Assembly: GCA_945929845.1 (NCBI GenBank)
Contig: CAMEON010000003.1
Location: 16,723 to 80,722 of the forward strand
DNA: 64,000 nucleotides
Origin: an uncultured Clostridia bacterium
Lineage (GTDB): Bacteria > Bacillota > Clostridia > Oscillospirales > CAG-272
Reading direction: 5' to 3'
This document shows, one piece after another, positions 1 to 24,868 of the stretch. The notes under the pieces were generated by a model. The model was not told the DNA's origin and made no database searches. It worked only from the letters and a program-made list of their open reading frames with translations. Numbering within the stretch: position 1 is the stretch's first letter; each line of letters starts with the position of its first letter. A program made the translations under genes and the position numbers.

Positions 1-836
1 GCACCTCCCACTACCGCGGGCAGAAGAAATACGAAAACAACTACTCCGGCTACCTCTTCTGCGGTGACTGCGGCTCGCCCATGTTCTCACGCAGTCGTCC
101 CGACCTTGCCGATGCCTATATCTGCGGCACCTACCACACAAGAGGAAAGGCAGGTTGCACCACCCATCACATCCGTGTGGACGTGCTTGACCGTGAGTTG
201 AAGCGATACGTGGAAAGACTCTGTCATACCTCGGAGGATATGCTGAAGCGGCTTGAAGCCGAGATCAGCTTTGAGCCGAGCGCCATTCAGGACAGCACGA
301 ATGCAACCGTAGAGCTTGCCGCCCTCATCGAACAGGAGAAGGAAGCGCTCAAGATTCTGATGCGTCAAAAGGCGCGCGACCTTTCGCGTGCCAAGGGCAA
401 CGAGGACGTCATCATGGAGATGTATGACGGTTTGATCGAAGAAGCCGCCAACCGCATCCACGGACTTGAAAACCAGATCGCCATGTCGGCAGATACGAGA
501 AACACCATCATTCGCGCCAACCGACACGCCAAGGCGGTGCTGGATATCTTCCGCGATATGCTGACCAAGGAAAAGCTCGACAAGCGCGATATCAGCCTCA
601 TCGTGGACAGAATCATCGTCTACGAAAACCGCATTGAGATAAAGCTCCGAAACGATGTGGACGCGCTCCTGCGGTGTGAGGACACGCACGATGTGCCGCC
701 CACAGAGGGGCAATCCGCAAATTTTAACGAGGACACTAAAAATATCGAAAGCGCCACAGAAAAATACAGCTCTGTGGCAGTACAATCAGCAAAAAACCAG
801 AATGATAAGGTTTTTAGTGTCAATGTTATCAGTGGC
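1..836 (+). mobile_element. Right-hand end of an integrated element (prophage, ICE or intervening element) inserted in spoVT. The junction is at about nt 830-840.
   Basis: A recombinase gene lies at the extreme end. An AT-rich tail (about 715-830) is followed by an abrupt switch to GC-rich spoVT-homologous sequence at about 837. Confidence 0.6.
3..836 (+). CDS. Large serine recombinase, C-terminal part. The 5' end lies left of the window, and there is no stop codon before the spoVT-derived segment.
   Basis: The frame is open from nt 3. YLFCGDCGSPMF...YICGTYHTRGKAGCTTHHIRV is the Cys-rich zinc ribbon of large serine recombinases. It is followed by a long Glu/Lys/Leu coiled-coil-like segment and a DRIIVYENRIEIKL tail as in TndX/TnpX/SpoIVCA-type enzymes. 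Confidence 0.75.
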
Positions 837-1313
837 GGAGACCCCCTGGAAATCTATACAGACCGCGAAGGCGAGGTCATATTCAAAAAGTATTCTCCCA
901 TCGGTGAGCTGGCAGCCTTTGCCGGGCAGTATGCCGAGACACTGCACAAGACCTGTGGATTATCGGTGGCCATTTGTGACAGGGATGCTATCATTGCCTG
1001 CGCCGGTATTCCCCGGAAGGAGTTCCACGACAAGCCGCTTTCCCCGTCTTTGGAAAGCATTATTGAGGGACGCAGTCTGTATGTCCATACAGAAGGTGGC
1101 GAGTTCAAGCCCTTGACCGCAGACAGTGACTCCCACTATATCCACTGCGCCATGCCCATCCTGACCGAGGGGGACATCATGGGCTGTGTGGTGTCGGTTC
1201 GCTCCCAGGGAGACGACAACGGCGGAGACAAAGCCTCCGTTCCCGGCCCGGATGTAGAGTCCAAGCTGATTCAGACCGCCGCCGGTTTTTTGGGCAGGCA
1301 GTTGGAAAGCTGA
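837..1313 (+). pseudogene. spoVT: spoVT 3' fragment (sporulation regulator SpoVT, GAF-like C-terminal domain). About 30 N-terminal codons are missing.
   Basis: GDPLEIYTDREGEVIFKKYSPIGEL...CDRDAIIACAG...TEGDIMGCVVSV...IQTAAGFLGRQLES is colinear with B. subtilis SpoVT (sequence recalled from memory) from about residue 31 to the C-terminus. The AbrB-type N-terminal hairpin is absent. Confidence 0.8.
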
Positions 1314-1495: not shown

Positions 1496-2590
1496 TCAGT
1501 CTGCAGTCAGACCGGAGCGCTCGATACCCTGAACCAGGAAGTTCTGGCAGAACGCATACAGGATGACCAGCGGCATGATGATGCACAAGCCGCAGGTATT
1601 CCGAATGGCGGCGTAGTACATATTCTGTCCGGCGTAGTCCGTCTTCAGGGATGTAGGAATATCCACGATGTCCGGCATCAGGACGATCTTGGATGTGGTG
1701 AAGAACAGCTCGGTGTAGAAGTCATCTGTCCACTGCCAGCAGAAAGCGAACAGGAAGACAGTCACCATCATGGGTATGGACAGCGGCAGGATGATGGTTA
1801 CGAAGGTACGGAAGGTACCGGAACCATCGATGTAAGCCGACTCCTCCAGCGCATCAGGCACGCCAGTGAAGAACTGACGGAGCATGAAAATGTACAAACC
1901 GTTCTTGAAAGCCAGGCCGGTTGCCGACAGGATCAGCAGAGGCCAGTAGGTGTTGGTCAGGTTCACACCGCCATCCTTCAGAGGAATCAGGTGAATATTG
2001 GCCAGTACCGCATCCAGCCCTTCTATACCTGTGGACGCATGGCCACTGAGAAGGGACAGGATACCCCAGATGTCAAAGTACCGGAACTGCATGAACATGG
2101 AGAGCTGCAGGGTCTGGTGAGGCACCACCATGGTCAGAATGACCAGCAGCATGATCAGCTTGTTCCCGCGGAAGCGGAACTTCGCCAGTCCGTAGGCGAT
2201 CAGACAGCAAACGAAGGTTTGCAGGATGCCGCAGGACAGGGAGATGATCAGGGTATTCCGGAATGCTGAGAAGTATTTCAACTCTGTCAGGACTGCCTTA
2301 TAAATATCCAGTGTAAAGTTCTTGGGGATCAGTCGGACAGTCACATCCACGAAGTCCTCCGGGGACATGAAGGAGCCGGCGATCTTTGTAAAGAAGGGAT
2401 ACAGCACGACATAGGAGATACCGATCAGCAGGACCAGGCGGAAGATGTACCAAACCACCTTCTGGAAGAAGTACAGATTCACAAACTTAGCCTTGAGTCT
2501 GTCCTTCAGGGGCGTTCTTTCGAAATCCGCCTTGATCTTCCTTTTGGTTTCTTTGGTGATTCTGGGTGTAGAATTCATATTTGCGTCCAT
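1496..2590 (-). CDS. Carbohydrate ABC transporter permease (MalG/BPD_transp_1 type) with an N-terminal extension
   Basis: Multi-pass membrane protein with the EAA-loop motif EESAYIDGSGTFRTFVTIILPLSIP. At 364 aa it is longer than the usual ~280 aa. Confidence 0.85.
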   Translation of the reverse strand: MDANMNSTPRITKETKRKIKADFERTPLKDRLKAKFVNLYFFQKVVWYIFRLVLLIGISYVVLYPFFTKIAGSFMSPEDFVDVTVRLIPKNFTLDIYKAVLTELKYFSAFRNTLIISLSCGILQTFVCCLIAYGLAKFRFRGNKLIMLLVILTMVVPHQTLQLSMFMQFRYFDIWGILSLLSGHASTGIEGLDAVLANIHLIPLKDGGVNLTNTYWPLLILSATGLAFKNGLYIFMLRQFFTGVPDALEESAYIDGSGTFRTFVTIILPLSIPMMVTVFLFAFCWQWTDDFYTELFFTTSKIVLMPDIVDIPTSLKTDYAGQNMYYAAIRNTCGLCIIMPLVILYAFCQNFLVQGIERSGLTAD

Positions 2591-2602: not shown

Positions 2603-3580
2603 TTAATCTCGTTTCTGGTAGAATACGTAGGCGGAGAATATACCGGCAATGGCCGCCAGAATCAACATCACCAGCAGGAAGTACATCCAGGCCATGGCCG
2701 AGGAGTGTACCTGTCCATCCTGACTCTGATACACCGAGTTGATATACACCATCACCGTGTTGGAGTTGGTGGTGAAGGAGTCAATGATGGTATACACAGC
2801 GTTCACCAGGATCATGGGGCTGATCATGGGGAAGGTGATCTTCCAGAAGGTCTCCCATGCGGTGGCACCGTCAATGCGGCAGGCCTCATAAATAGCAGGA
2901 GAGATGGACTGAAGTCCGGCCAGGAATATCAGCATCTGAACGCCGGAACGGTTCACAATGTCATAGATGTTATTGATCATATCAACCACATACTCCACCA
3001 GTCCTGTACCTATCTTCATGGAAGAGAACAACCGTTCAATATCAATGGCTGATACGATCTCTGATGCCGCACTGGAATTGGATCCGTCGTTGATGCCGCC
3101 CGCTTCCTCCATGTAGGAACCAAGAATGTTCTGGCCCTCTACCGACTCCATAATACCGGTGGACAGGATGACGGGGATGAAGAATATGGCACGGAACACT
3201 GCACGGCCAGCCATCTTCTGGTTCAGAAGCACGGCCATGAACAGGGAGAACAGCAGGATCGCAGGGACATCAAAGGCAAGCTCCTTCAGTCCAGCCACCA
3301 GAGTCTGCACAAAGCTGGGATCCTCTGTCAGGGCGTACTTGTAGTTTTCAAGTCCTGCCCACTCCAGATGGTATCCGCCGCCGGTCACGATCTGGAGGTT
3401 GTAGAAGCTCATCCTGATCGAGTTGAGGATGATAGGCAGATACACGATGAGAAAGCCGATGACAAACGGGAGAACAAAGACCCAACCGGCCCGGGCCTTC
3501 CGCCGATCCAAAGAAGCGATTTTACGCTTCTTTGGCTTCGGGGCACTGACCGTGGATTGCAGTTTGACTTCATTGGTCAT
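2603..3580 (-). CDS. Carbohydrate ABC transporter permease (MalF type)
   Basis: EAA-loop motif EACRIDGATAWETFWKITFPMISP and 6 TM-like hydrophobic segments. It lies 12 nt from the partner permease. Confidence 0.85.
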   Translation of the reverse strand: MTNEVKLQSTVSAPKPKKRKIASLDRRKARAGWVFVLPFVIGFLIVYLPIILNSIRMSFYNLQIVTGGGYHLEWAGLENYKYALTEDPSFVQTLVAGLKELAFDVPAILLFSLFMAVLLNQKMAGRAVFRAIFFIPVILSTGIMESVEGQNILGSYMEEAGGINDGSNSSAASEIVSAIDIERLFSSMKIGTGLVEYVVDMINNIYDIVNRSGVQMLIFLAGLQSISPAIYEACRIDGATAWETFWKITFPMISPMILVNAVYTIIDSFTTNSNTVMVYINSVYQSQDGQVHSSAMAWMYFLLVMLILAAIAGIFSAYVFYQKRD

Positions 3581-3613: not shown

Positions 3614-6600
3614 TCAGCGCATGACAACCACATACCCATACGCAGGGATGGTATATGTGATTCCATCATACACGACGCTCACCGAGAAGTTGTTATAGTT
3701 CAGGAGGAACGTCTTATAGCCTTCATAACTGCCGTTGCTGGTCTTCTCGCCGTAGGTGACTGCCACAATGCGGCCGTCAGCGGACAGGTACTTGGAAGGA
3801 TCCTCTTCTTCCTCGTCTTCGATGACCGTCACCACACGGATCATATCGTCAATATCCTTCTCCGTCATGGTGGTTGTTGTGGTCACATAGTAGCGCAACA
3901 GGGTCTTCAGCTTTTCGCTGGCTGTGTACAGGTCATCGCCATACACCTCAGATACATGGAAGGTGGTCTCCTTGGCAGCGCTCAGCTTGGTCAGCACAGC
4001 GTTGTAGTAGTAATACCGGATGTAAGCTGAGATCTCGGCGCACAGGGCATCCTTTGCCTCACCCTCCTCGGACTGTGCATCCGTCAGGTACATACCTGCC
4101 AGCAGCTTCTCGTAGATCTCGTTGACCCATTCGCTCATTTCCTCATCGGTCTTGAGTCTGGTCAGGGCGTAATCCGGAAGCTCTCCACGGGCTGTGCCGG
4201 TCTTGGCAGCAGCAACCAGCTCGGATACGGGTGTCTGTACAAAGTCCTTGTCGAAATACTTAATGGCGTTCTTATACTTGGTAGAATTGGTAGCAGCGAG
4301 CTTGTTGCCATCGTAAAGGGACAGCGTGGGCACCTCATCCATCAGGTACTCAGAGAAGCTCTGGAACAACAGGTAGATGTAGTAGCTCTGCACATCGGAC
4401 GCCATGGAGTAGTTACCGCTGATGTAGTAGGTCACACGGGAAGCAACATCCTTGGTGAAAGCCGTCAGAGAGTTGTAGTCCTCCGAGAAGGATTCCACAT
4501 CGCCCAGCGCACGGAGGATCATGTCATACACCTCATAGTCTGTGGTGTTCTCCGTGATATTGGCTACGATCTGATCGTGCTTGGCGGCCACTGCGGCCCG
4601 GATGGTTGCATCCATAGCACCCATCTGGCTGTCGTAGTAGTAACTGATCACCTCAGCATCAGCCAGCTTGACCAGGTATACATAGTACACAAACTCGGTA
4701 GCCTCTGCCTCCAGATCCACGCTGTCCGCAAAGGTGTGCTGTTTCAGCTTGTCAACCAGGTCGGCAATGATGCCACCCAGGTCATCCACGCTGGCCGTAG
4801 CCACGGCTTCGGTCACATAAGTCAGAAATTCCTCATTGAGTGCGGCCTTGTCCGAAGTGCTTAGTCCCGCATCCTTGAAATCGAAGGTAGGCTTGCTCTT
4901 GTCGTCCAGACTGCCCACGATGAGAGTCGCATATGCCTTGGCGTAGGCCTTGGCAATGTTGTCACTCACATCGCCGTACATATCCTTGATCTCTTCAGCA
5001 ACGATGCTCAGCTTAGCGTTCAGGGTATCATCCTTCAGCATAGCCTCCAATGCTGCCTTGAAGCCTTCGGTCTTGCCGTATGCGTTCAGTCGGTTGTTGG
5101 CCAGTGCCGCCAGGGAAGAATCACTCTTGGTAGACACGGTAATGACGCTGAGAGAATCCACAGTGCCCTCCGGCTTCATCAAAGCGATGACTGCCTGATA
5201 GTACTTGCCTTCGATGTAATTTCTCACATCCGACTCAACGGTATCGGGGGTCAGGTAGGTAGCGAAAGGATCGGCACCTTCCTCACCGGCTTTGGTGATG
5301 ATCTTGACACAGTCGGCCACAGCCTTATTCAGAACATCTGCCGACACGACGGCATCCATGCTGTAGTTACCGTCAGTCACGCCGGAAAGCAGAGCGGTGA
5401 TCTGCTTGGAAATGATGCTGTTGATACTGGTGGTCAGTTTGTTGATGTTGGTGGTGTTGGCCACGACCTTACCCTTTTCATTGACACGGGTGGGATCGAA
5501 GTTCAGAGCAGGCACCACGCTGTTGTCGCTAAGCCCGCTGACGGAGGTGTAGAGTATATTCAGGAAGTAGCCCAGCACATTCTCATCCACCTCGCTCAGT
5601 CCGTTGGCTCCCTTCTCATCGGAGAGGATGGGGTCAAAGACATACGCATCGCCCAACAGCTCCCGGAGGTGCAGGATCAGTCCGCTGACGGAGGAGGAAC
5701 CCTCCACGATACCGTACTTGGCGGCCAGCTCTGCATCAGTCAGATCCTTGTTGGCATCCAGGTAACGGAGTGCCACATAATCCACCTCTGTCAGGCCGTA
5801 TTCCTTTTGAGCCAGCATCTCGTAGAGCTTTTCGCCCTTGCCGATGACACCGATCTGGCCTGCGGTATTCTCACCGTAGCAACTGTAGAGCAGGTTGGAG
5901 ATGTGCACATACAGGAAGGTATCCACCTCTGCCTTGTCCACAGTCAGGTTGAACCGGACACCCAGCTGCTGCTCTATCATCGCCCTGGCAGATTCCAACT
6001 GCTCTCTGGCCTCGTCAATGATGCTCTGGGGTACACCTTCGGTTGCACCGATCAGGGTCTGTCCTTCCTCTGCCACCTTCAACAGGTTGGTCAGATTCTC
6101 ATACTCGGTCTCCAGTGTCAGGATCGCACGGGAGATGTTGCGAACATAGGTCTTGAGCTGTGGCGAAGCCTGCTTCTGTGTCGTCTCGGCAGAGATCAGC
6201 AGGGGAGACAATGCCTCCTTGTCCTCGGCAGAAGCGGCTTCATACTCAGCCAGCACCTTCTGATAGGCTGCATTCGCCTCCGTGTATGCGGCCAGGCGGC
6301 GCTCATAGGAGCGTTCACCGGTGACATAGAGGTAGGCGGCACCGCTGATGCTGCTGTAGTTGGTGATGCAGGAGTTGATGAAATCCTTGGCAGAAGTCTG
6401 CACGCTGGCGATGTTCTTACGGGCATCGGCTACAGCCTGACTCTGCTGCTGGCGCTCATACTCGTCCTTGTTGATCTGGTAATCCAGCACCTGCTCGAAC
6501 TCGGCCAGGATATCGTTCTCCAGCTCGTCGGTATCCGGTACACGCATACCGCTGAGGAACTCGTGGTCAATGATCAGCTTATCCTGTACATCCTTCAGTA

Positions 6601-9349
6601 CACCGTTCACCTCGTTGTAGATCTCCACGACATCGTCGTACCAGATGTCGTACCGGATGGAGTAGTACTGGCTCAGGAGGTACCACTCCTTGAGCAGCTC
6701 GGTGTTGGTGTAGGACAGGGTGAAATACAGGGAAGCACCGTTCTCAATGGCCTTCAGCTTGGCATAGTTCACATCGCCTTCCATGTTCAGCGGAGATCCG
6801 GCGAAATTCATGTAGCCGTGAAGCACCACGCCGATGAAGGGCACGCTGTAGCTGGAGCGGATATACCGGCTGGAGTCAAGGGCCACATCCAGGATGTGAT
6901 CCACATACTTCCAGGTGTAGACATTACCGCCGTCCACCATGACCTCCAGGTTGGACTTCTCCTCAGAGGACAGGTAATCCAGTGCCTTCTGAACGAAGCC
7001 TCTGGAGTCCTCCCGGTTGAAAGGTTCATCCTCGTCGAAGTCGGAGTTCAGGTCGCTGCCCAGCGTACCTACCGAGATACCGGTCACATTGTCGTACTTC
7101 AGGTAGTTGGACACCAGCTTCTCATAGAAGTGGCTGAAGTAAGCGGGGGAGATAGCCAGCATGCCGACGCTCATGTACCGCTGCTGGGTAGGCATATACT
7201 GCCGCTTATTGGTATACCGGTCGTCGATGGTCTTGACGGCATGCTTTCTCAGGGACAGCCCGTCAAACAGGCCGGTCTCGTTGACATAGGAGAAATCGAA
7301 GTCCGGGAAGATACCCAGGTTGCCATCGGTCACGCCGGCGGCGTAATCGAACAGCTCCTGCATACTGGTATCCTTGGACACGGCACGCTCCCACTTGAGC
7401 CGGTAAGGCATCTTGGCGTACATACCGCCGTTGGCAAAGCCGGTCAGCTTGAAGTTGATGTTGGTCACACCGTCAGCCGACAGCTCCTCGTACATGGTGA
7501 TAATGTCAGCCGCTGAAGTCAGGGCTTTCTTGACCGTGACCGGGATGGAGGCGATCTTCTCAATGGTCTCCAGGGATCCGAAGGCCTCAATGTACATCGG
7601 AATGTCGCCGGAGGTCTCCTCCTCAGTCAGACGGGACAGGACACCCTTGTTCACCAGATAATCCCGGTAGGCAAAGGCCATACCCAGCCAGGTTGCCTCA
7701 TACCATCCGTCAGCCTTCAGCTCTCCGGCCGCCACTTTTTCCTCGGCGACAGTCTCGTCGGTGAGCATGATGTAGTGAACCTTGAAGTTACCGGTGTACT
7801 TCCGGTCGGTGATGACAGTCCACTCGGTGTTGGTACCGACGGAAATGGAATCTGCCAGGTTGTAAGAGTCCTGAGGCCGGGGGTTGAAGTTCATCATGAC
7901 GGTGTCATAGGGAGACAGCACGCCGGAATGGTAGTACACCATATTGGTCAGCGCATCGCCTTCCTCGATGATAGCCGTAAAGCCCCTGTTCACCGTCACA
8001 GGACGGATCTCACTGGCCGAGGAAATCAGCGTGGCGTAGTCCTTGAACGCCGCGGGTACCGTTGTTCCCTCCTTCTGGGCATCCACCACCTTATCGTAGA
8101 TCAGACCGGAAATGGTCGTGGTCTTGATCTCACCGGTATCGTCATCGTACTCATCGCACTCATAGTACTGGGTATTCTCTACGATACCGAAGGCAGGATA
8201 GCGAACGACCTGCTGGTAGGTACCGGTGATCTGGTGGTAGGCATAGTCAGCACCGTAGATCTTGCTGGCCACGGAGGTGGTGTTGGTGTTGACCAGATCC
8301 TCCATGGAGAACAGGGTACCGGAGCCGTCCGGATAGAAGACATAGCCCTCATAGGCGTTGTTGCCTGCACCCATGTACGGCAGGATGCTGATATTGGTAA
8401 GCTGGTAGAGAGATTCGTTGAAGGTCAGACCGTTGACAGGCAGACGGACAGTGAAGCCGTCGTCCTCCAGGGTATACTCCAGTGCCATCTTGAACACGGG
8501 AGGATTGGTCTCGTCGCTCTCATACCCGGTGAGCTGATGGTCGTAGTCCATCTCCTCGTAGGAATACTCCGGGCAGGCGGCCTTGATCAGCTCCTCCACC
8601 TTTTCGATCTCGGTGGCGCTGGCTGTGGGGTCAAAGACCCAGATGTCCATCTCTGCGGTGATGGGGAAGGAAGCAAGCATATCCTGCTTCAGTCGGTCTG
8701 TGGCGCAGGCATCCAGATCCTTCACACCGTTGGCACCGCCATAGTAAGCCAAAAACTTCTTATAGTAGAAGTTGTCTTCATCGCCGCCATAGTACTCCAG
8801 CATGGGAGCCAGTATCTTCTCCCGGAAGCGGGAGTCCTCGATCCAACGGGGAACCAGGTGTCTGGCCTCCTCACGGCCGATGATGTACTCCACACGGATA
8901 CCGTTCTTGATATTCTTGACCGTGATCTGATCCCGGAGGGAGGCGTACTCATAGCTGCTGAATTCCTTCTCCTTGCCGTTATCCGTGTACTTGATGATGA
9001 TCTGGGAGAGATTCTGATACTTGATGCTTTCCGAAGAATTGCTGGCTCCCACATCATAGGGGTTGGTACTGATGATCTGACCGGTGACAGTATTCTTCAC
9101 CGCCACCTCACCGGAGTACTCGTCACAGTAGATCTGATAGTTGCCCTTTGTGAGCTTCAGCTTCATGGTGGCGAGCTTATCCTCCGGCGTGGCGAACACC
9201 TTTGTCAGATAATCGATCTGATTTTTCTTTTCCGTTTCCGTCTCAGTCGTTGTCTCCTCAGCCGCCACCGAGACAGTGAAAACCGTCACGACACTGCACA
9301 GCATGACAACAGCTAAGAGCAGGGAAAGGATCTTTTTACATTTCATCAT
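3614..9349 (-). CDS. Secreted 1911-aa protein of unknown function. The N-terminal ~900 aa resemble the DUF5696 family, and the C-terminal ~1000 aa are helical and Tyr-rich.
   Basis: Signal peptide MMKCKKILSLLLAVVMLCSVVTVFTVSVAA/EE. ILPYMGAGNNAYEGYVFYPDGSGTLF and the following alpha/beta segment match my recollection of DUF5696. Long uninterrupted ORF with no competing homologous ORF. Confidence 0.7.
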   Translation of the reverse strand: MMKCKKILSLLLAVVMLCSVVTVFTVSVAAEETTTETETEKKNQIDYLTKVFATPEDKLATMKLKLTKGNYQIYCDEYSGEVAVKNTVTGQIISTNPYDVGASNSSESIKYQNLSQIIIKYTDNGKEKEFSSYEYASLRDQITVKNIKNGIRVEYIIGREEARHLVPRWIEDSRFREKILAPMLEYYGGDEDNFYYKKFLAYYGGANGVKDLDACATDRLKQDMLASFPITAEMDIWVFDPTASATEIEKVEELIKAACPEYSYEEMDYDHQLTGYESDETNPPVFKMALEYTLEDDGFTVRLPVNGLTFNESLYQLTNISILPYMGAGNNAYEGYVFYPDGSGTLFSMEDLVNTNTTSVASKIYGADYAYHQITGTYQQVVRYPAFGIVENTQYYECDEYDDDTGEIKTTTISGLIYDKVVDAQKEGTTVPAAFKDYATLISSASEIRPVTVNRGFTAIIEEGDALTNMVYYHSGVLSPYDTVMMNFNPRPQDSYNLADSISVGTNTEWTVITDRKYTGNFKVHYIMLTDETVAEEKVAAGELKADGWYEATWLGMAFAYRDYLVNKGVLSRLTEEETSGDIPMYIEAFGSLETIEKIASIPVTVKKALTSAADIITMYEELSADGVTNINFKLTGFANGGMYAKMPYRLKWERAVSKDTSMQELFDYAAGVTDGNLGIFPDFDFSYVNETGLFDGLSLRKHAVKTIDDRYTNKRQYMPTQQRYMSVGMLAISPAYFSHFYEKLVSNYLKYDNVTGISVGTLGSDLNSDFDEDEPFNREDSRGFVQKALDYLSSEEKSNLEVMVDGGNVYTWKYVDHILDVALDSSRYIRSSYSVPFIGVVLHGYMNFAGSPLNMEGDVNYAKLKAIENGASLYFTLSYTNTELLKEWYLLSQYYSIRYDIWYDDVVEIYNEVNGVLKDVQDKLIIDHEFLSGMRVPDTDELENDILAEFEQVLDYQINKDEYERQQQSQAVADARKNIASVQTSAKDFINSCITNYSSISGAAYLYVTGERSYERRLAAYTEANAAYQKVLAEYEAASAEDKEALSPLLISAETTQKQASPQLKTYVRNISRAILTLETEYENLTNLLKVAEEGQTLIGATEGVPQSIIDEAREQLESARAMIEQQLGVRFNLTVDKAEVDTFLYVHISNLLYSCYGENTAGQIGVIGKGEKLYEMLAQKEYGLTEVDYVALRYLDANKDLTDAELAAKYGIVEGSSSVSGLILHLRELLGDAYVFDPILSDEKGANGLSEVDENVLGYFLNILYTSVSGLSDNSVVPALNFDPTRVNEKGKVVANTTNINKLTTSINSIISKQITALLSGVTDGNYSMDAVVSADVLNKAVADCVKIITKAGEEGADPFATYLTPDTVESDVRNYIEGKYYQAVIALMKPEGTVDSLSVITVSTKSDSSLAALANNRLNAYGKTEGFKAALEAMLKDDTLNAKLSIVAEEIKDMYGDVSDNIAKAYAKAYATLIVGSLDDKSKPTFDFKDAGLSTSDKAALNEEFLTYVTEAVATASVDDLGGIIADLVDKLKQHTFADSVDLEAEATEFVYYVYLVKLADAEVISYYYDSQMGAMDATIRAAVAAKHDQIVANITENTTDYEVYDMILRALGDVESFSEDYNSLTAFTKDVASRVTYYISGNYSMASDVQSYYIYLLFQSFSEYLMDEVPTLSLYDGNKLAATNSTKYKNAIKYFDKDFVQTPVSELVAAAKTGTARGELPDYALTRLKTDEEMSEWVNEIYEKLLAGMYLTDAQSEEGEAKDALCAEISAYIRYYYYNAVLTKLSAAKETTFHVSEVYGDDLYTASEKLKTLLRYYVTTTTTMTEKDIDDMIRVVTVIEDEEEEDPSKYLSADGRIVAVTYGEKTSNGSYEGYKTFLLNYNNFSVSVVYDGITYTIPAYGYVVVMR

Positions 9350-9369: not shown

Positions 9370-11535
9370 TTAGATTCTGTACTGAATTTCGGTGACAAGG
9401 TTGGTGATCAGGCTGACGATCTTTCCGACCAGCGTAGTGAACAGGACGGCAATGAACATGATGAAGACCATCGCTACCACTGTACCCAGAACCGTGATCA
9501 CATTCTTACCCATAGAGTAATCGTGTGTCACCATGGTGCCGAAGAAGATCAGGATACCCAGCCAGATGAAGGCCAGTGTGCCGATGAAGCTGACGATCTG
9601 GGTCTCTGTGGTCACACAGAAGTTGGAATAAATGGTCGCAGGGATAATGAGCAGGGGCAACGGCACCAGGCTGTAGGAGCAGGCGATGAAGATATCCTTG
9701 AAGGAACCTTCGCCCTCAAACAGGGTAGTCAGGCACCAGTTGGCCAGGACGAACAGGAACAGCGGAACCAGCACGCCCAGCACCTGTGCCCATACGCCGG
9801 CATAGCCGCCGTTGGGATTCATCAGATACCCCTGGCCGATGGCCTGGTAGTAGAAGGTGGCGATCGCCAGCACGATAAAGAAGACGGATGCTCTCACCGA
9901 GCCGCGCTTCTCATGCTTCAGATCCCAGAAGCCGTCGAAGGGATGGAAGATCACATGGAAGCCGTAGGCGACCTCCTGCCAGAAGGTGCGCTTCTTTCCG
10001 GAAACCGCCACCTTCTTGTTGATCTTGGCCATGGTGCGGAAGAACAGCACCACACCCACGATGACAACCACAATGATGAGCAGCAGAACAATGAAGTAAG
10101 TGGACATCCATTCCTTCCGGATCTCCTTATAGGAGTTGGACCAGTTGGTGGTATCGTATGCGGATTCAAAGTAGGTAAGGGAGTTTGCGTAGTCCTTGTT
10201 CCGGTACATGGCCTGGCCGATACCGACATAGGCTGAGTCGAAGTTGGAGTTCCGCTTCAGCACATCCGTCCACAGATCGATGGCCAGGTCGTAATCCTGC
10301 GTACTCTCAGCGGCGATAGCCTGAAGCAGAATGTCGCCGTACTCGGTGCGCTGGAACACGGTGATATTGTTGTTGGTCTTATCCAGAACCATCAGGTTGG
10401 TATCCTGATAGGCTACAGCCTCAATACTGCCCAGGTTACCCAGCATGGTACCGTTATCACCGAAGGCAAAGAGCAGGTTGCCGTCAAAGTCATAGGTGTA
10501 GATACGGTTTCTCTTCTCGTCAATGAGGGACCAGGTGTTCTCCGGGCCGACAGCCACATCAATGATGGTGGACACGCCAGTGATATCATCGGTGGAGCGG
10601 GTTGAGAAGTCAATTTCACCGGCGGGAATATGGAAGCCGTTCCGGCGCATGATCTCCGTACCGTTGGCATTGAGAAGCTTGACGGGGGAATACTTACCGG
10701 ACTTATCGTTTCCTCTGATGGATGCTTCCACATCCGCATCGTCAATGGTGGAGGTGGTGGCGTACACCAGGTTCTTCTCCCGGTTGATGGCCACATTGTT
10801 GAACTCCGTGGACACCACTGTCTCAGAGGCTTCCCTCTGCGCATCGGTCTGGAAGCGTCGCCAGATGATATCCCAAGCGGACAGGGACACGGCCTGGGCA
10901 CCGATGAATCCGGTGAATTCACCGGCATCGGTCATGACGATGACGCCCTGATAGGTGGTGGAGGACACCACATACAGACGGTTGTAAGCGTCCACGGCAA
11001 TGGCCACCGGCTTATAGACCGAGTTTTCATCGAAAAGCTGGGATTCCGGCTCCTCGATGATGCGGACGAACTCTCCGTTCTCATCAAAGACCACGACCCG
11101 GTTGGAGCCGGTATCGCAGACCCAGATCAGGCGGTCATACTTTTCATTCGGCTCGCTGACGAACACACCCTGGGGAGCAGCCAGACTGTCCGGCACGCCC
11201 TGGTCGTTGTCAAACTCGGAGATGGTAAACTTCAGCTTGTAGTAGCGGTCCAGCACCACGATGCGGTTGTTGCCGGTGTCGGCGATGTAGATGTTCTGGT
11301 TCAGGTCAGTGACCATATCCCCGGGGTTGGCCAGGGGGATCTCCAGTCCCATATCCACCGCATTGACTGCCTTGATAGCGGTATACGCATCCGGAGAATA
11401 CAGAGCCTTACCATCCTTATCGTAGGTGTAGGTCTGGTAGGCAGAGCCGGCACTGGAGGTGACGACCAGGGAGGAAGCCACCATCAGCAGGGAAAAGATT
11501 ACACAGAGACACTTTTTCATACTCATTTTCTTCAT
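9370..11535 (-). CDS. Secreted NHL-repeat beta-propeller / TPR / C-terminal Yip1-type 5-TM membrane domain protein
   Basis: Signal peptide. NHL-like blades (NIYIADTGNNRIVVLD, IWVCDTGSNRVVVFD, RLYVVSS). TPR-like DLWTDVLKRNSNFDSAYVGIGQAMYRNKDYANSLTYFE. Five hydrophobic helices at the C-terminus. Confidence 0.7.
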   Translation of the reverse strand: MKKMSMKKCLCVIFSLLMVASSLVVTSSAGSAYQTYTYDKDGKALYSPDAYTAIKAVNAVDMGLEIPLANPGDMVTDLNQNIYIADTGNNRIVVLDRYYKLKFTISEFDNDQGVPDSLAAPQGVFVSEPNEKYDRLIWVCDTGSNRVVVFDENGEFVRIIEEPESQLFDENSVYKPVAIAVDAYNRLYVVSSTTYQGVIVMTDAGEFTGFIGAQAVSLSAWDIIWRRFQTDAQREASETVVSTEFNNVAINREKNLVYATTSTIDDADVEASIRGNDKSGKYSPVKLLNANGTEIMRRNGFHIPAGEIDFSTRSTDDITGVSTIIDVAVGPENTWSLIDEKRNRIYTYDFDGNLLFAFGDNGTMLGNLGSIEAVAYQDTNLMVLDKTNNNITVFQRTEYGDILLQAIAAESTQDYDLAIDLWTDVLKRNSNFDSAYVGIGQAMYRNKDYANSLTYFESAYDTTNWSNSYKEIRKEWMSTYFIVLLLIIVVVIVGVVLFFRTMAKINKKVAVSGKKRTFWQEVAYGFHVIFHPFDGFWDLKHEKRGSVRASVFFIVLAIATFYYQAIGQGYLMNPNGGYAGVWAQVLGVLVPLFLFVLANWCLTTLFEGEGSFKDIFIACSYSLVPLPLLIIPATIYSNFCVTTETQIVSFIGTLAFIWLGILIFFGTMVTHDYSMGKNVITVLGTVVAMVFIMFIAVLFTTLVGKIVSLITNLVTEIQYRI

Positions 11536-11548
11536 ATCAGCACCTCCG

Positions 11549-12421
11549 TTAATCCTTCATACCACTGGAACCCATAGTCTCTATGATGTTTGACTGGGAT
11601 ACGACGAAGACCAGGATAGGCACCAGCATCATGATGACCTGAGCAGCGGCGGAAGCACCGGCACGCTTGATACCTCCGGCGGTGATCTGACCGATGGCAT
11701 AGTTCAGCGACTTGTACTGCTCGGAGTAGATGTACATGGATGCGCCTGCGTTCCACAGCCCTTGGAAGGAGTAGATGATCAGCGTCAGCCAGGCAGGCTT
11801 GACCATGGGCATAGCGATGATCCAGAAGGTTCGGAACTCGCCGGCACCGTCCAAACGGGCGGATTCCAGTACCGAGTCGTTGACATTGGTATCCATGAAC
11901 TGCTTCATCAGGTACAGACCCAGGGAGGAACACCAAGCCGGGACGATCAATGCCCAGTAGGTATCCAGCCAATGCAGGTTCGCCATCAGAATGAAGGAAG
12001 TAATTGCGGTGACGGTGGAGTTGAACATCAGGGACAGCTGTACGATCTGGAACATCCCCTCCCGGCCGGGGAACTTGATCTTAGCCAGGGCGTAGGAGGC
12101 CATGGAGGCCAGCAACAGGTGTCCGAAGGTACCGGCCACGGATGTCAGCAGGGTATTGAATATGTACCGGGAGAAGGGCACCCAGGAGATATTCATCAGG
12201 GTGAACAGGTCGCGGAAATTCTTGAATGTGGGGCTGATGACATAGAATCGGGGCGGGAACATCCACAGCTCATCCAACGGCTTCAGCGACTGGATAAGGA
12301 TGTACCACATGGGGAGGAACATGAACAGGCCCAGGTTGATCAGAATGATGGAAATACCTGTGTCGCCCCCCGCCGAACGGGCCAGGACGACCTTATGATT
12401 TCTTGTTCTTAATTTTGCCAT
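11549..12421 (-). CDS. Carbohydrate ABC transporter permease (MalG type), second pair
   Basis: EAA-loop motif ESARLDGAGEFRTFWIIAMPMVKP; 290 aa; 6 TM. Confidence 0.85.
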   Translation of the reverse strand: MAKLRTRNHKVVLARSAGGDTGISIILINLGLFMFLPMWYILIQSLKPLDELWMFPPRFYVISPTFKNFRDLFTLMNISWVPFSRYIFNTLLTSVAGTFGHLLLASMASYALAKIKFPGREGMFQIVQLSLMFNSTVTAITSFILMANLHWLDTYWALIVPAWCSSLGLYLMKQFMDTNVNDSVLESARLDGAGEFRTFWIIAMPMVKPAWLTLIIYSFQGLWNAGASMYIYSEQYKSLNYAIGQITAGGIKRAGASAAAQVIMMLVPILVFVVSQSNIIETMGSSGMKD

Positions 12422-12422
12422 A

Positions 12423-13367
12423 TCACGTACCTAACCTTGAAATTATTTTCTTGACCAGCAAGTTGGCACCGACCATGATGAGAAATAGCAGCACGGCGAT
12501 GGCCGACGAGTAACCGATCTCATACCGCTGGCCTCCGTAGTCCTCCAGATGGTGCATGATGGTGTGGGCACAGTAGTTGACAGACGGGAAGCCCGCCAGA
12601 GCCGTGACGATACCACCGAAGCCGAAGGAGCCTGTGATGGACATGACGGCACCGAACATCAGCTGAGGCTTCATGGACGGCAGGGTGATGTAGTACAGCT
12701 CCTGCCACCGGTTGCGGACACCGTCCACAGCTCCGGCCTCGAACAGGGAGTGATCGATACCTTGCAGACCGGCGATGAAAGCCAGGAAGGAGGTACCCAA
12801 AGAGGTCCACAGGGCAACGATGATACACAGGGGCATGACATACTTTTCGTCCTGAAACCAGGCAATTTCGGTATCAATGATACCCAGCTTCAGCAACACG
12901 GCGTTGGCCCAGCCGTAGGAGTCAGACGAGAACAGGGTTGCCCAGATCAGGTACGCCTGACCGGAAATAGACGGTGCGTAGAAAATCAGGGTGACGATGG
13001 CGCGAACCTTGGGGGGCAGCTCATTGATGAACCACGCCACCAGGAAGGACATCAGGTAGGACGCAGGGCCTACGATGACGGCGAAGATGAAGGTGTTCTT
13101 GATGGCGATGAGGAACACATCGTCATCAAAGAACAGCGTCACATAATTCTTCAGCCACACGATATTCGGGACTTCCAACATGTTGAAGTCGGTAAAGCTG
13201 AGCAAAATGGAGAAGACGACAGGCACGATGGTGAACAGGGTAAAGAAGATCATGTAGGGGGCGACCATCAGGTAAGCGACCCAGTTCTGCTTGGCTTCTT
13301 TCAGCTTCCATTGCATCTTTGTCAATTCTCGCGAGGTGGCTTTTTTCTCTGCTGTTTTTGTAGCCAT
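12423..13367 (-). CDS. Carbohydrate ABC transporter permease (MalF type), second pair
   Basis: EAA-loop motif EAGAVDGVRNRWQELYYITLPSMKP; 314 aa. There is a 1-nt gap to the downstream permease. Confidence 0.85.
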   Translation of the reverse strand: MATKTAEKKATSRELTKMQWKLKEAKQNWVAYLMVAPYMIFFTLFTIVPVVFSILLSFTDFNMLEVPNIVWLKNYVTLFFDDDVFLIAIKNTFIFAVIVGPASYLMSFLVAWFINELPPKVRAIVTLIFYAPSISGQAYLIWATLFSSDSYGWANAVLLKLGIIDTEIAWFQDEKYVMPLCIIVALWTSLGTSFLAFIAGLQGIDHSLFEAGAVDGVRNRWQELYYITLPSMKPQLMFGAVMSITGSFGFGGIVTALAGFPSVNYCAHTIMHHLEDYGGQRYEIGYSSAIAVLLFLIMVGANLLVKKIISRLGT

Positions 13368-13416: not shown

Positions 13417-16400
13417 TTACATCAGACCGTTGATGTCATCCAGGAAGTCTGCCAGGCACTTGAACTGTGTGATGATCTCTGATGTATTCTTGTACACCTC
13501 GTAAGAGAAGCACTTGCGTACCTTCTTCTTTTCAGCCTTGGTCAGGGATGTATCGTCCATGTCGTATCCCATGGTGGCATTTCTGTCCTCCACGAACTTG
13601 GAACCATCGGGGTCCAGCTTCCCATACAACTCCCGGACAGCGTCAGCGGCAGTGAGCAGGGCGGCCTGGTTCTCGCTCTTGATGGCGGACTCCACCTGTT
13701 TCAGAAGAGCATCATACTCAGAGGAGTAGCTACCGTTGCTGCGGATCAGCTCCACAAGCTGGCCAGCCTGTGCCAGGCGCTTCTCCAAGAGGTTGGTGTA
13801 ATCCACATCTCCGTCAGACAGCGTCTCCAGGTTGAACTCGTTCCGTTTCCGCTCAATCTCCTTGTTGATGGTGTTGATGTACTGCAACAGGCTGTCGGAG
13901 GGATCGGCTTTATCGTTGAAGGCACTGAGGAAGGCGAAGTTGGTGTAACGGTCGATGATGTAGTATCCGGGGTAGTTGGGCACGGAAGCCAGGTTTTCGA
14001 ACTGACTCTGCACCTGCGCATACTCACTGGTGGTCCAGGGCAGGCTGGCCAAGGCCTTGCCGTTAGCCGTGGGCTGTTTTGCGGAGGGACCCAGAATAGC
14101 GACCATCTCGTTGGCAAAGCTGACCTGGCACTTCTCGCCGGTGTACCACTTCATGAAATCCCAGGCGCGGTCTCTCTGCTCGCCCTCGCATCCCTTGACC
14201 ATGACCACAGCAGTCACCGCAGAAATGGACACATTGTTGACGCTTCCGTCCTCCTGAAGCTCGCCGGGCAGGGGCATGAACTCCCACTTACCCTCGATCT
14301 CGGTGGCGAACACCTTGAGCTGGTTGTACACGCCGGTGTAGTCGCCAAGCACGATGGGCATCTCGCCGGTACGGAACCGGTTGGCAGCATTGTAAATGTA
14401 CGGGAAGGAATACATGGTGAACAGGTCGCACATCTTCTCGAAGGAAGCCAGACCCACCTGGGAATCCAGGTTGATGCGCATGCCGTTGTCAGCGAACAGG
14501 TCACCGTTATTCTGATACAGGAAGATCTTGTAGTCGGTGGTCAGACCGATCTGCATATTCTTGGACTGGAGGACGGGGATGCACGCCATCAGCTCATTCC
14601 AGGTCCGGGGAACCTCCAGATCCAGGTCAGCCAGGATGTCCGTCCGGACGAACATCATGGGGAAGGACTGGTTCTCAGGCAGGCCGTAGCAATGGGTGAT
14701 CTGATCCGCATCTTCCATGCTCAAAACCACCATGGCGGCGTCGTTGAAGCTCTCTGTCGTCTCCTCGAAGTCCTCAAACCCTTCAATATTTACAAGGGCG
14801 GAACGGATGGCGTAGTTGATGACATCCGCCTGACCCAGGCCAAGGTACACATCCGGGCCGGATTCTGCCAGGATGGAGGGTAGCAGGGTACCGCCGGCCA
14901 CCAGCTTCAGATCCACGGCAATGTCGGAGTTGGGGGTGTAGTCGTTGTTGATCAGGCTACGGAGAACCTGAGACTGGTCACGGGCGGTAGCCAGCCACAC
15001 CTCCACGGACTCGGCGCTGCTCTCCTCCATGGCGCCCATGCTGTTGTAGTCACGGACAAAGCTCTGGAAGAAGCCCTTCACCTCATGCAGGAAGGACTGG
15101 AAGAAGTTCGGTGTAGCCTTGGGCAGATCTGCACCGGCGGGCTGGATCAGCACATAGTCCAACTGAAGCGGCTGGGTCTGTGCATCGGACAGGAAGGTAC
15201 CCAGTGTACCGATGTTGGTCTTGAGGGACTCCAGGTTCTTTGCCACATCGTCGTCATCCTTGCCCATCTCGTCCAGCAGTCGGGCGATCTTCTCCAGTGT
15301 AGCCACATTGGAAGATTTCTCACCGGCCAGCTCGGTCAGCAGATCCGCCATATCATAGAGGCGGATGGACTGCTTGACCATATCGATCATGGTGTCCGGC
15401 ATGACAGAGGTAAACTCGTAGTCACGCAGGCTGTCAGGGGATGCGCCGGTCAGCTTCATGATGTTCAGGTAATCATTGTTGATATGGGTCAGCACATCCT
15501 CAACCTCGTTGACCAGCTCGCCCATTTTGCCCAGCGTCACTTCAAAACGGATGGTATACTCCACGCCGGCCTGAAGGTACACCTGGAAGTCAGTCAGCTG
15601 ATCCTTGGCGTTGATCTTGCCGTCTCCGTTGGTATCGGTGCGGTCTCCCAGGGTCAGGGTGGTCACCTGCCAGCTGGTGCTATAATTATAGGTAAGCTGC
15701 TTAGCCTCGGCAAAGGGAGCACCGTTGTAGTAACCGCGGTCGCCTTCATTCAGCCCGGTGCTGTACAGGTACATGGCACGGCATACGGAGATACCGTCCA
15801 GCACATCCTGCTTGTAGCGGGACACGATGTCGTACATACCGGAGCTGTCCACCTTAAAGGTGTACTCCAGCCACTGACCGGCGGTCTGCCACTTCTCGCC
15901 GCCCACCGTGTTCAGCACGGAGCGGGTTGCATCCGTGGGGGAATTGATGGCGCAGGCGCGATCCTCCACCGGGTAGATGGTGGTGTGAGAGGTGGCGGAG
16001 GTGAATTCGCCCTCCAGCTTGATGGTATCCTGGCCGGGGGCTACACCCTCATACTGCTTGATATACTCCTCGTAGGAAGGAGCAAGCTCCAGGGGATAGA
16101 GCGTGATGGAGCCAATGGTCATGGGCTCGTTCTTGCTCTCCAGGGTAATGGTATTTTCGCCGGCCTCCAGAACGAACTCAAAGTCGTCCATGTAGTACCC
16201 ACTGGAATCCTTCACATAGTAGGTCATCCACTTGGGTGTCTGTACCGAGCCGGGGCGAAGCTCATTTTTCTCCACATCGATCACGAAGTACCGGACAAGA
16301 TGCGCCTCGCAGAAGTCTGTCATGGCGGCTGTCATGTAGTCCGGCTTGGAGAAAGTGACCTTCCCATCCTGGATGGTCACATTGCTGAACCCGGCACTCT

Positions 16401-16944: not shown

Positions 16945-17807
16945 TCACTTTTCCTCCTGGTTGGTTTTTCGGAACGCCACCCGGGACAGGTGCGGCATTC
17001 CATGGGGTATTCTGCCATGTCGGGTGCATAGGAAAGTCCCTGTCCGCACCCTCCCTGCGTGTCAGCCGCCCCGGTTCTGAGCGGAAAGCAACGATTGCGC
17101 CGAAGGCGGGCGCAACGCCGCCGTGTTTCCAGCCGGAAACAGCAGACGCCAAGCAGTGAAGCAGACATATGTACACGAAGCCAGGACAGAAAGCCACCGT
17201 CGGCGGCCGGAACAGCCGTCGGCACACGCAAAACCAGCCCCAGAGCCGTGTGAGCACGGCCCAAAGGATAACAGAGCCGTCACCTCAAGGTCGAGGGACG
17301 GGTCATTCTATCTCTGCGTGCTGAGCCTTTTCCGTCGGGACAACTGCACAACACCCCAAATTGACCCCTACATCATACCACAAAAGTGCCAAAATGTCAA
17401 GAGGTTCTGCGGTCTCCATCATATATAACCATCCCCGGAAGCGGGAAGACTTGGAAGGTTTTCGCTTGTTCACAATTTATTCACGGAAAGGTGTCCCGTT
17501 CTCTCTTCCATTTGACACATTCCATCGAACGCTTTTCATAGCAAAATACAGGGTGCTTTCACTTCCTTTTCCGGAACTTTTTTTGGTTTTTCACATATCA
17601 TTCACATTTTGACATATATTTTTTACTGTTTTTTAACCTTTTATTCAAATAAAGAGACCGTTGCACGGCCTCTTTTCGCAATCTTATGATTTCATTCACC
17701 AATGAACCGCCCCGCCGGGTATAGTCGTTTTGCACAAATTTTGGGCAACTTTTTCTACACTCCGTCAAAACCAACAAATTTGCTGTTCCTTCTTTTTGCA
17801 TTCGGTC

Positions 17808-21416: not shown

Positions 21417-21459
21417 AATCAACCTCTCGTTCCTTTCAGAATATTGTGTCAGGATGTGC

Positions 21460-23697: not shown

Positions 23698-23754
23698 AGA
23701 GGAACCTCCTTTTCATACAGTGTCAGCTGTCAGCCTGAAAATATGCCCGTTTTG

Positions 23755-24720: not shown

Positions 24721-24868
24721 AATTCTTTCTCCATTTACTGTTTACTGTTTGTTGAATTCGGCCTCCCGCACCTGCCATGCCCGGCCTGTGGAAAGCCATA
24801 CCTATTATACAACAAGCAGGAAATTCTGTCAAGGTTTTCCCGGAATTTATGAAAGTTTGGTAGGTTGA

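Follow-up and report, generated by a model that had tools for sequence, protein, structure and literature searches.

A 64,000-nucleotide (nt) stretch of DNA from an uncultured Clostridia bacterium (contig CAMEON010000003.1, positions 16,723 to 80,722), the whole of which is called the window here, encodes on its minus strand a protein of 1911 amino acids (aa) that belongs to the Pfam family DUF5696 (PF18952) and lies within a cassette of ATP-binding cassette (ABC) transporter genes. We lean, with modest confidence, to the reading that this protein is the cassette's own extracellular glycan-processing subunit and not a solute-binding protein (SBP), that it is retained at the cell surface, that its residue D770 serves as nucleophile and that the products are imported. 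DUF5696 is already catalogued in Pfam but uncharacterised, and the protein is not categorically new. New are the assignment of DUF5696, at the level of a predicted fold, to the architecture of the glycoside hydrolase (GH) families GH129 and GH31; its apparent place, judged from gene order, as an obligate component of an ABC cassette whose seven or eight genes are fixed across Bacillota; and a giant hypervariable insertion, predicted to be helical and without detectable structural match, which splits DUF5696 in gut Clostridia.

Family membership and domain order

The protein matches PF18952 with 409.3 bits (E=3.9e-122; gathering cut-off 25.6 bits). An earlier note, written from the letters of the window, had suggested a resemblance to DUF5696, and at 409 bits this suggestion was correct. 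The match falls into two stretches, aa 266-394 (profile positions 3-134) and aa 455-933 (positions 134-577 of 612), so that the 612-position model is not covered contiguously; the Butyrivibrio homologue (839 aa) matches positions 3-612 in one stretch (aa 222-835). All listed homologues carry PF18952, and a phmmer search retrieved 3995 DUF5696 cluster representatives (clusters at 50 % identity) at E<=1e-3. The terms 'DUF5696' and 'PF18952' were found in no paper of the literature searched, and NCBIfam holds no model for the 1911-aa protein. The following parts are distinguished.

3614-9349, minus strand: whole open reading frame (ORF), predicted DUF5696-family secreted protein (ORF list, translation, PF18952, full-length homologues)
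9260-9349, minus strand: predicted Sec signal peptide, aa 1-30, with KCKK n-region, hydrophobic aa 10-28 and VAA/EE (hydropathy, conserved AxA-type site)
9218-9259, minus strand: Thr/Glu-rich linker, aa 31-44 (sequence; variable and acidic in homologues; predicted local distance difference test, pLDDT, <50 in the model)
8555-9217, minus strand: N-terminal mixed beta/alpha domain, aa 45-265 (pLDDT ~80-90; outside the Pfam model, shared with the Butyrivibrio homologue)
8168-8554, minus strand: first part of DUF5696, aa 266-394, profile 3-134 (Pfam; invariant PDGSG with D341 and YGxD with D368)
7988-8167, minus strand: small lineage-specific insertion, aa 395-454 (gap between the Pfam stretches; alignment)
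6548-7987, minus strand: second part of DUF5696, aa 455-934, profile 134-577, ending in HEFLSG (Pfam, DSSP, Foldseek)
3794-6547, minus strand: all-helical insertion of ~920 aa, aa 935-1852, ending in an acidic run at aa 1844-1851 (AlphaFold; variable in relatives)
3617-3793, minus strand: C-terminal beta unit, aa 1853-1911, DGRIVAVTYG ... LNYNNFSVSV ... YTIPAYGYVVV (six strands in the model; the same motif ends canonical proteins)

Apart from the long helical part, aa 395-454 form a second insertion hot-spot, at which the 1911-aa protein has ~60 extra residues. In one relative (P0262) this hot-spot is filled by repeated Cys-rich (CxxC-type) modules, several hundred residues in all, and the same relative shows a weak match to a hyaluronate-lyase N-terminal beta domain. 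In other relatives 700-1000 aa precede the DUF5696 core. Two DUF5696 paralogues are present in some genomes of Paenibacillus (P. hamazuiensis, Paenibacillus sp. 32352). Two public records (Paenibacillus sp. 32O-W and P. protaetiae) label the DUF5696 protein 'glycoside hydrolase'; the rest are called DUF5696 or hypothetical.

Predicted fold of the head

The head of the protein (aa 30-1010) was modelled with AlphaFold2 from an alignment of 42 sequences. The mean pLDDT of the model is 66 and its predicted template modelling score (pTM) 0.59, with pLDDT values of 80-90 in the N-terminal domains. According to DSSP the N-terminal part is mixed beta/alpha, and a regular alternation of strands and helices begins at ~aa 585. 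The central alternating beta/alpha region described from the letters is seen in the model at ~aa 580-925, where it forms the barrel-like region within the second part of DUF5696; the first 550 aa, which had been called 'beta-rich', do contain beta structure but in the model this is mixed with alpha.

A Foldseek comparison of the head with the Protein Data Bank (PDB) placed GH129 at the top, with ZgGH129 (5opq, E=1.4e-16; 8rzk, E=1.9e-15) and NagBb (5wzn-5wzr, E from 8e-12 to 2e-9; 5wzn at 7.7e-12). These GH129 matches have probability 1.0 and template modelling scores (TM-scores) of 0.48-0.53 normalised by target. A second tier at E ~1e-5 consists of the GH31 proteins MYORG, cycloalternan-forming enzyme, glucan lyase and FjDex31A, and a third tier of GH97 and GlgE, which we take to be a GH13-type alpha-glucan enzyme. 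The overall fold of GH129, an N-terminal beta domain, a (beta/alpha)8-type barrel and a C-terminal beta domain, was also recognised in the head model, at its mean pLDDT of 66. An alpha-glycosidase-type architecture of the DUF5696 core, nearest to GH129 and then to GH31, is supported at fold level by this model, and the TIM-barrel glycosidase-like fold suspected in the earlier note is borne out to the same degree.

Candidate active site

Distant members from Butyrivibrio (28 % identity) and Paenibacillus (24 % identity) were aligned with the 1911-aa protein. Across the Clostridia and Bacilli members the residues D770, R779, N809, H844, N855, E869, W903 and H929 of the barrel region are invariant, and E588 and D859 are conserved to at least 90 %. 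Invariant residues of the N-terminal domain are E291, E312, D341 (PDGSG) and D368 (YGxD). In the head model, strand 1 ends in E588, strand 4 is followed by D770 and R779 and strand 5 by N809, H844 stands after the strand VPFIGVV, and N855 and D859 lie in the next loop. In GH13, GH31, GH101 and GH129 the nucleophile is an Asp placed after strand 4. Because of this shared position we infer from the model that D770 is a candidate catalytic nucleophile.

7040-7042, minus strand: codon of D770, candidate catalytic nucleophile (counted as the only barrel-region carboxylate that no alignment, even with distant members, shows to vary; in the loop behind predicted strand 4)

The helical insertion and the displaced C-terminal end

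Among the relatives the first ~1000 residues and the last ~65 are conserved, and between them length and sequence vary. Two anchor hidden Markov models (HMMs), one for the end of the head (aa 860-936) and one for the C-terminal unit (aa 1853-1911), were both found in 137 of 150 cluster representatives (50 % identity clusters). In these 137 proteins the spacer from anchor to anchor measures 19-1463 aa, with quartiles of 109, 288 and 572, and the beta unit always stands at the extreme C-terminus with a median tail of 3 aa. Canonical proteins of 757-839 aa possess the same motif, V.VTY..G....NY....V.G..v.A..y, about 12 residues after HE(F/L)L. Furthermore, the Pfam alignment extends to profile position 600 when aa 935-1852 are deleted in silico. 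Taken together, anchor spacing, shared terminal motif and Pfam coverage identify the beta unit as the displaced terminus of DUF5696, and HEFLSG (aa 929-934) is, by these sequence comparisons, separated from the normal family terminus by ~920 inserted aa. The canonical proteins were missed by an HMM of this unit trained on close relatives; the link between the two ends rests on global alignment, intermediates and Pfam coverage. The helical half is not a C-terminal extension, since it precedes the terminal beta unit. Likewise the 'small beta domain' at the end does exist as a six-strand unit, not as a separate domain but as the DUF5696 terminus.

The AlphaFold model of aa 985-1911 has a mean pLDDT of 87.5 and a pTM of 0.75 and shows ~35 helices, one of 62 residues near the start, followed by the six-strand unit. 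The region is all-helical from ~aa 935 to 1850 and closes with the acidic run EDEEEEDP (aa 1844-1851), in agreement with the helical half and acidic stretch read from the letters. Neither the helical half nor the C-terminal 68 aa gave a Pfam match at E<=10, and Foldseek found no match of the helical-half model in the PDB (best E=0.038, TM-score ~0.1) or in BFVD (best E=0.024). The top Foldseek matches, with TM-scores of ~0.1, were to unrelated proteins (solenoids, cohesin subunits, tape-measure proteins) and were rejected. That this half resembles nothing familiar therefore holds for Pfam, PDB and BFVD alike, and the insert is predicted with high confidence to be folded, without detectable structural match.

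Within the insert a helical module of ~100 aa is duplicated.

5126-5434, minus strand: duplicated helical module, copy 1, aa 1306-1408, GNYSM ... GKYYQAV (hhalign, iterated HMM)
3938-4237, minus strand: duplicated helical module, copy 2, aa 1705-1804, PDYAL ... YYYYNAV (hhalign, iterated HMM)

The two copies match each other at an hhalign probability of 97 % (E=7e-11), and this internal duplication accounts for two of the 'YY' motifs noted before. An iterated HMM found exactly two copies in each of 124 close relatives and none in other clades; the inserts of different clades are therefore not recognisably homologous. Other segment pairs of the helical half showed no significant repeat. A variable copy number of one repeat was considered as the general cause of the length range and rejected, as there is a single duplication which is absent elsewhere. 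In the close family, identity is 32-66 % for aa 985-1911 as against 60-80 % for the head, and by this sequence measure the insert is fast-evolving in this lineage of uncultured gut Clostridia. Canonical members of 750-860 aa lack it, which argues that the insert is not needed for the core function.

Reading frame, predicted export and absence of known anchors

The ORF runs from ATG to stop (1911 aa plus stop, 3614-9349, minus strand). Every motif quoted from it is present in the translation: GDIPMYIEAFG at aa 581-591, GIFPDFDFSYV at 679-689, ISVGTLGSDLNSDFDEDEPF at 758-777, VMVDGGNVY at 803-811 and VPFIGVVLHGY at 836-846, as well as the YY motifs ISYYYDS (1568-1574), YYISGNY (1641-1647), IRYYYYNAV (1777-1785) and LLRYYVTT (1817-1824). 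A search of 5.8 billion proteins yielded 1187 relatives. Of the 120 best homologue clusters the majority align over 100 % of the query, with 46-100 % identity and lengths of 1870-2040 aa. In total more than 100 clusters are full length, and the full-length homologues come from many independent assemblies of uncultured gut and rumen Clostridia.

In a hydropathy scan aa 10-28 are the only strongly hydrophobic stretch of the protein. They are followed by VAA/EE, and an AxA-type site with a subsequent acidic or Thr-rich linker is kept in the homologues. From these sequence features it is a reasonable prediction that the DUF5696 protein is exported and cleaved by signal peptidase; the cleavable signal peptide, which had been reported as 'seen directly', stands as a prediction. 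An LPXTG-like motif ([LI]PX[TSA][GAN]) is absent from the 1911-aa protein, SLH, dockerin, carbohydrate-binding module (CBM) or other Pfam domains besides DUF5696 were not found at E<=0.01, and neither a lipobox Cys after the hydrophobic region nor a C-terminal transmembrane anchor exists. The motif and Pfam scans thereby agree with the earlier statement that LPXTG, SLH, dockerin and lipobox are all missing.

The seven-gene cassette

The DUF5696 gene is the fifth of seven tightly spaced minus-strand genes with gaps of 1-49 nt. The other six are as follows.

13417-16944, minus strand: gene 1, giant SBP of 1175 aa, SBP_bac_8 at aa 693-945 (signal peptide, no lipobox)
12423-13367, minus strand: gene 2, permease A1, BPD_transp_1 (Pfam score 24.5, just under the cut-off of 26.4)
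11549-12421, minus strand: gene 3, permease A2 (EAA motif at aa 186)
9370-11535, minus strand: gene 4, NHL/TPR-like/Yip1 membrane protein of 721 aa (Pfam, hydropathy, synteny)
2603-3580, minus strand: gene 6, permease B1, MalF/UgpA-like (Pfam/NCBIfam, synteny)
1496-2590, minus strand: gene 7, permease B2, MalG/UgpE-like (EAA motif at aa 250)

The protein of gene 4 is composed of a signal peptide, an NHL beta-propeller, a sub-threshold TPR-like region, a transmembrane segment at aa 481-499 and a Yip1 domain with five transmembrane segments. Between permease pairs A and B the identity is only ~24 %. The DUF5696 gene lies directly upstream of two BPD_transp_1 permease genes, 33 nt from permease B1. 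It had been said to occupy the 'SBP position' of the second transporter; the gene order agrees with this description, but the protein has no SBP domain and the cassette has a giant SBP of its own. No SBP_bac Pfam match was found in the DUF5696 protein, and its fold matches are glycosidases. Lachnospiraceae loci additionally have ordinary SBP genes, one or two of them, directly downstream of permease B2.

When 185,579 species-representative genomes were scanned, relatives were encoded in 310 stretches, and 80 of these loci were fetched. Every locus with enough flank contains the same seven genes in the same order and orientation: giant SBP, permeases A1 and A2, NHL/TPR-like/Yip1 protein, DUF5696, permeases B1 and B2. 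This order was found in all 62 of the related loci from gut metagenome-assembled genomes (MAGs) with seven complete genes, and nine distant loci share it with position-by-position orthology. Four of the latter are clostridial (Butyrivibrio fibrisolvens plasmid pNP243, an Acetatifactor contig, a Roseburia MAG and a Lachnospiraceae contig) and five belong to Bacilli (Paenibacillus cellulosilyticus, P. alkalitolerans, P. mucilaginosus, Cohnella nanjingensis and Neobacillus kokaensis). As an example of the orthology, the first permease of Butyrivibrio scores 370 bits against A1 and 35 bits against B1. A MalK-type ATPase gene leads the cassette in three of the Bacilli loci. Judged from these comparisons the cassette is invariant and ancient, and in every locus examined DUF5696 is part of it and never free-standing. 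In a literature search on DUF5696, PF18952 and Yip1/NHL with ABC transporter the cassette was nowhere described.

Conservation is far higher in the giant SBP than in DUF5696 (576 vs 181 bits). The SBP has an AxA-type signal peptide and a length of 1138-1346 aa across the 80-locus clade and about 1000-1350 aa overall. A lipobox is lacking in 55 of 65 loci, an uncommon condition among SBPs of Gram-positive bacteria, and a lipobox-like motif is present in the other 10, so the retention problem applies to two cassette proteins. Its N-terminal ~650-690 aa gave only sub-threshold CBM35 and Golvesin_C matches (aa 103-144).

Several taxa have separate genes, overlapping by ~20 nt, for the NHL protein (~490 aa) and for the Yip1 protein (206 aa). 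Split genes occur in Lachnospiraceae, P. alkalitolerans and Cohnella (e.g. Butyrivibrio locus 7210-9305; L083:7915-9985), and fused ones (710-750 aa) in the window clade and some Bacilli. From the sequences this looks like a gene fusion or fission event, a pattern that speaks for attachment of the extracellular propeller to the Yip1 membrane domain.

The flanks of the cassette in the window clade consist of housekeeping and sporulation genes (spoVT, an RlmI-like methyltransferase, alaS, spoIIGA, sigma factors, sufBD), and clustering of the flanks of 80 loci revealed no conserved carbohydrate-active enzyme (CAZyme) or regulator. In other taxa GH43, GH53, GH26, GH113 with GH2, GH35 with GH42, GH2 with GH38 or luciferase-like oxidoreductases are found beside it, often accompanied by LacI or histidine-kinase regulators.

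Proposed function and alternatives

In the favoured reading the DUF5696 protein would be exported and held at the cell surface non-covalently by membrane-embedded partners. The NHL/TPR-like/Yip1 protein would be the obvious candidate for holding it; that a protein of the Yip1 family can be an accessory to an ABC transporter has a precedent in YknW. The DUF5696 protein would cleave or transglycosylate an extracellular glycan, with D770 as candidate nucleophile. Its products would be bound by the giant SBP, and the two CUT1-type permease pairs would take them up. The helical insertion may act as an accessory appendage, i.e. as spacer, scaffold or interaction platform. A dedicated substrate is favoured over a generic uptake module because the cassette has no intrinsic enzyme-like component other than DUF5696 and because its SBP, unlike the flanking CAZymes, stays conserved from class to class.

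Several points weigh against this reading. The head model is only moderately confident, and the barrel loops often have a pLDDT <50. No sequence-level link from DUF5696 to any glycoside hydrolase or CAZy family was detected: Pfam searches at E<=10 with five sub-regions of the protein and with 40 diverse members returned no GH family, not even as a recurring weak match, but only DUF5696 (the GH31 family PF01055 gave no match), and searches of the PDB sequences with the single protein and with a 42-sequence profile found no relative and no GH129 chain. Matches to ATP synthase gamma, terminase and beta-lactamase in the latter search were rejected as chance (E>=0.017). The DUF5696 profile reached an hhalign probability of 0.3 % against Escherichia coli YicI (GH31), chosen as a proxy for mapping catalytic residues; this alignment is not significant. 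Among the conserved barrel residues no convincing general acid/base is found, because D806 and D825, which in a GH13/GH101-like layout would stand behind strands 5 and 6, are not conserved in distant members. As to the displaced terminus, the in silico deletion of the insert left the Pfam score unraised, and the profile-profile comparison of the short C-terminal unit alone is weak (E=0.029). Surface retention and any physical complex of the cassette proteins are pure inference. Finally, the flanking CAZymes differ by taxon and the window clade has housekeeping and sporulation flanks, so that the flanks point to no particular substrate.

A more far-reaching version, which we hold to be possible but doubtful, is that the cassette represents an unrecognised Gram-positive machine for glycan uptake at the surface, a 'utilisome', in which an exported glycosidase-fold protein of a new GH family and a likewise exported giant SBP without lipid anchor are held over two distinct permease pairs by an NHL/TPR-like/Yip1 scaffold. 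The hypervariable insertion (19-1463 aa) might then be a lineage-tuned arm with a new fold, which spans the wall or serves in assembly or glycan capture.

Of the alternatives to the extracellular enzyme, a non-catalytic receptor fares best, but is unlikely. DUF5696 would then be a glycosidase-derived pseudo-enzyme which hands a glycan to permease pair B and so functions as the 'SBP' of this pair. The position of its gene, exactly at the usual site of an SBP gene in all >70 loci, speaks for this idea, as do the absence of an ordinary SBP gene beside permease pair B in the window clade and the conserved residues themselves, since D770 alone was counted as a universally invariant barrel carboxylate and a clear acid/base residue is missing. 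However, the protein has neither the fold nor a Pfam domain of an SBP, the invariant D, R, N and H after the barrel strands look like a catalytic constellation, and in Lachnospiraceae the ordinary SBP genes after permease pair B could serve this pair. Moreover, no type I ABC importer is known to us in which a protein of glycosidase fold delivers the substrate.

Slightly less credit is given to a housekeeping function in the envelope, i.e. a cassette which recycles a wall-associated or capsular glycopolymer of the cell itself with DUF5696 as the trimming enzyme. Core and sporulation genes flank the cassette in the window and in the related gut MAGs, with no regulator or CAZyme adjacent, and relatives occur at 310 places among the 185,579 genomes. 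The giant SBP is highly conserved between classes (about 290-580 bits) despite differing flanking CAZymes, and one common ligand is therefore suggested. Against this, the cassettes of Lachnospiraceae and some Bacilli stand in inducible sugar loci (LacI/histidine-kinase, GH43, GH53, GH26, GH113), and in Butyrivibrio and P. cellulosilyticus the cassette is plasmid-borne, which would be unusual for an essential envelope function.

An artefact, namely several genes fused by a frameshift or assembly error, or an untranslated helical half, is practically discounted: the length of canonical DUF5696 proteins (only 750-860 aa) is the sole point in its favour, whereas the architecture is repeated at 46-84 % identity and 100 % coverage in homologues from many independent assemblies, 137 cluster representatives have the conserved beta unit in frame at their very end, and the model of the helical region reaches a pLDDT of 87.5. 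A fusion by sequencing errors, which the earlier note had itself raised as an objection, is contradicted by the homologues, which are full length.

Other features of the window

Two further elements around the cassette were recorded.

17372-17400, minus strand: best promoter-like site, TTGACA, 17-nt spacer, TG-TATGAT, 11/12 (consensus match only)
1423-1444, no strand assigned (scored on the plus strand): GC-rich hairpin between permease B2 and a convergent spoVT-like gene, candidate operon terminator

The hairpin is a candidate for the element which would close an operon of ~16 kb. Between the promoter-like site and the SBP start (16945-17400, minus strand) extends a GC-rich leader of ~430 nt with a terminator-like hairpin at 17116-17094. 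Rfam returned no credible family for this 5' leader (best E=0.032, far below the gathering score). The leader could be an attenuator or another regulatory leader of the 16-kb operon.

At the other end the spoVT-like gene converges on the cassette and shares the hairpin 1423-1444. Its listed ORF (81-1313, plus strand, 410 aa) has a SpoVT C-terminal domain only at aa 276-409, and the actual gene is probably far shorter. On the upstream side of the cassette, past a divergent PUA/SAM methyltransferase gene, two minus-strand ORFs follow at 19271-20368 and 20460-21488, a 365-aa ORF with a weak sub-threshold GH43 match (E=8e-4) and a family 2 glycosyltransferase (GT2). The 1132-aa ORF at 21454-24852 (plus strand) has no Pfam match.

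In the 62 complete cassettes the length of permease B2 (362-415 aa) correlates negatively with that of DUF5696 (Spearman rho -0.45, p=0.0003), a relation in which start-codon choice and common descent are probable confounders; for the remaining five cassette proteins, the SBP included, length shows no correlation with that of DUF5696.

Significance

DUF5696 is a very large family without published function, for which a testable proposal now exists: a GH129/GH31-like enzyme, extracellular and with D770 as candidate nucleophile. Its invariant cassette is shared between rumen and gut Clostridia and soil Bacilli. The characterisation of one cultured example could define a new CAZy family and a role of bacterial NHL/Yip1 proteins in transport, and could also show how a Gram-positive cell retains an SBP and an enzyme without a known anchor. 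As modelled, the 920-aa insert shows with unusual clarity how a domain can be split by an insertion that evolves fast and differs in length.

Comparison with known systems

Canonical DUF5696 proteins (750-860 aa) of Lachnospiraceae and Paenibacillaceae have the same signal peptide, invariant residues and cassette position as the 1911-aa protein. Compared with them the latter adds the ~60-aa insertion (aa 395-454) and the ~920-aa helical insertion at profile position ~577.

The GH31 enzymes, among them the alpha-xylosidase YicI, the alpha-galactosidase MYORG, the cycloalternan-forming enzyme of Listeria and alpha-1,4-glucan lyase, resemble DUF5696 in structure only. In GH31 the nucleophile Asp follows strand 4, and an Arg and a His follow later strands, a layout similar to D770, R779 and H844 of the DUF5696 protein. 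The GH31 fold is able to carry hydrolase, transglycosylase or lyase chemistry.

The best structural matches to the head model are the GH129 enzymes NagBb, an alpha-N-acetylgalactosaminidase of Bifidobacterium bifidum (5WZN), and ZgGH129, a 3,6-anhydro-D-galactosidase of Zobellia galactanivorans (5OPQ, 8RZK). GH129 and DUF5696 have a multi-domain plan in common, with a beta-rich N-domain, a (beta/alpha) barrel and C-terminal beta strands. The barrels of GH129 and GH101 have been described as alpha-amylase-like and partially broken (PMC8106489). Unlike GH129, the DUF5696 protein has an extra N-terminal domain and the 920-aa helical insertion, shows no detectable sequence similarity to that family and is obligatorily encoded inside an ABC-transporter cassette.

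As in the polysaccharide-utilisation loci of Gram-positive bacteria, a secreted glycosidase-like protein is encoded together with an SBP and MalF/MalG-type permeases. Such loci of Bifidobacterium, Roseburia and Ruminococcus combine a surface glycoside hydrolase with a CUT1 ABC importer and its lipoprotein SBP. An ATPase gene is absent from the window operon, as is common in Firmicutes, and in other taxa LacI regulators and GH genes flank the cassette as they do in utilisation loci. However, the cassette differs from these loci by its two non-identical permease pairs, by a giant SBP mostly without lipobox, by an enzyme without LPXTG, SLH, CBM or dockerin, by the constant presence of the NHL/Yip1 protein and by a gene order that is fixed across classes.

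A Yip1-domain membrane protein encoded together with an ABC transporter is also found in the YknWXYZ system of Bacillus, where the Yip1-family protein YknW is an accessory of the transporter, with a proposed influence on how the latter is assembled (PMC4887032). In that system YknYZ forms an exporter of the MacB type, accompanied by a membrane-fusion protein, whereas the cassette permeases are subunits of a type I importer (BPD_transp_1). In contrast to YknW, the Yip1 domain of the cassette is fused to, or translationally coupled with, a predicted extracellular NHL propeller.

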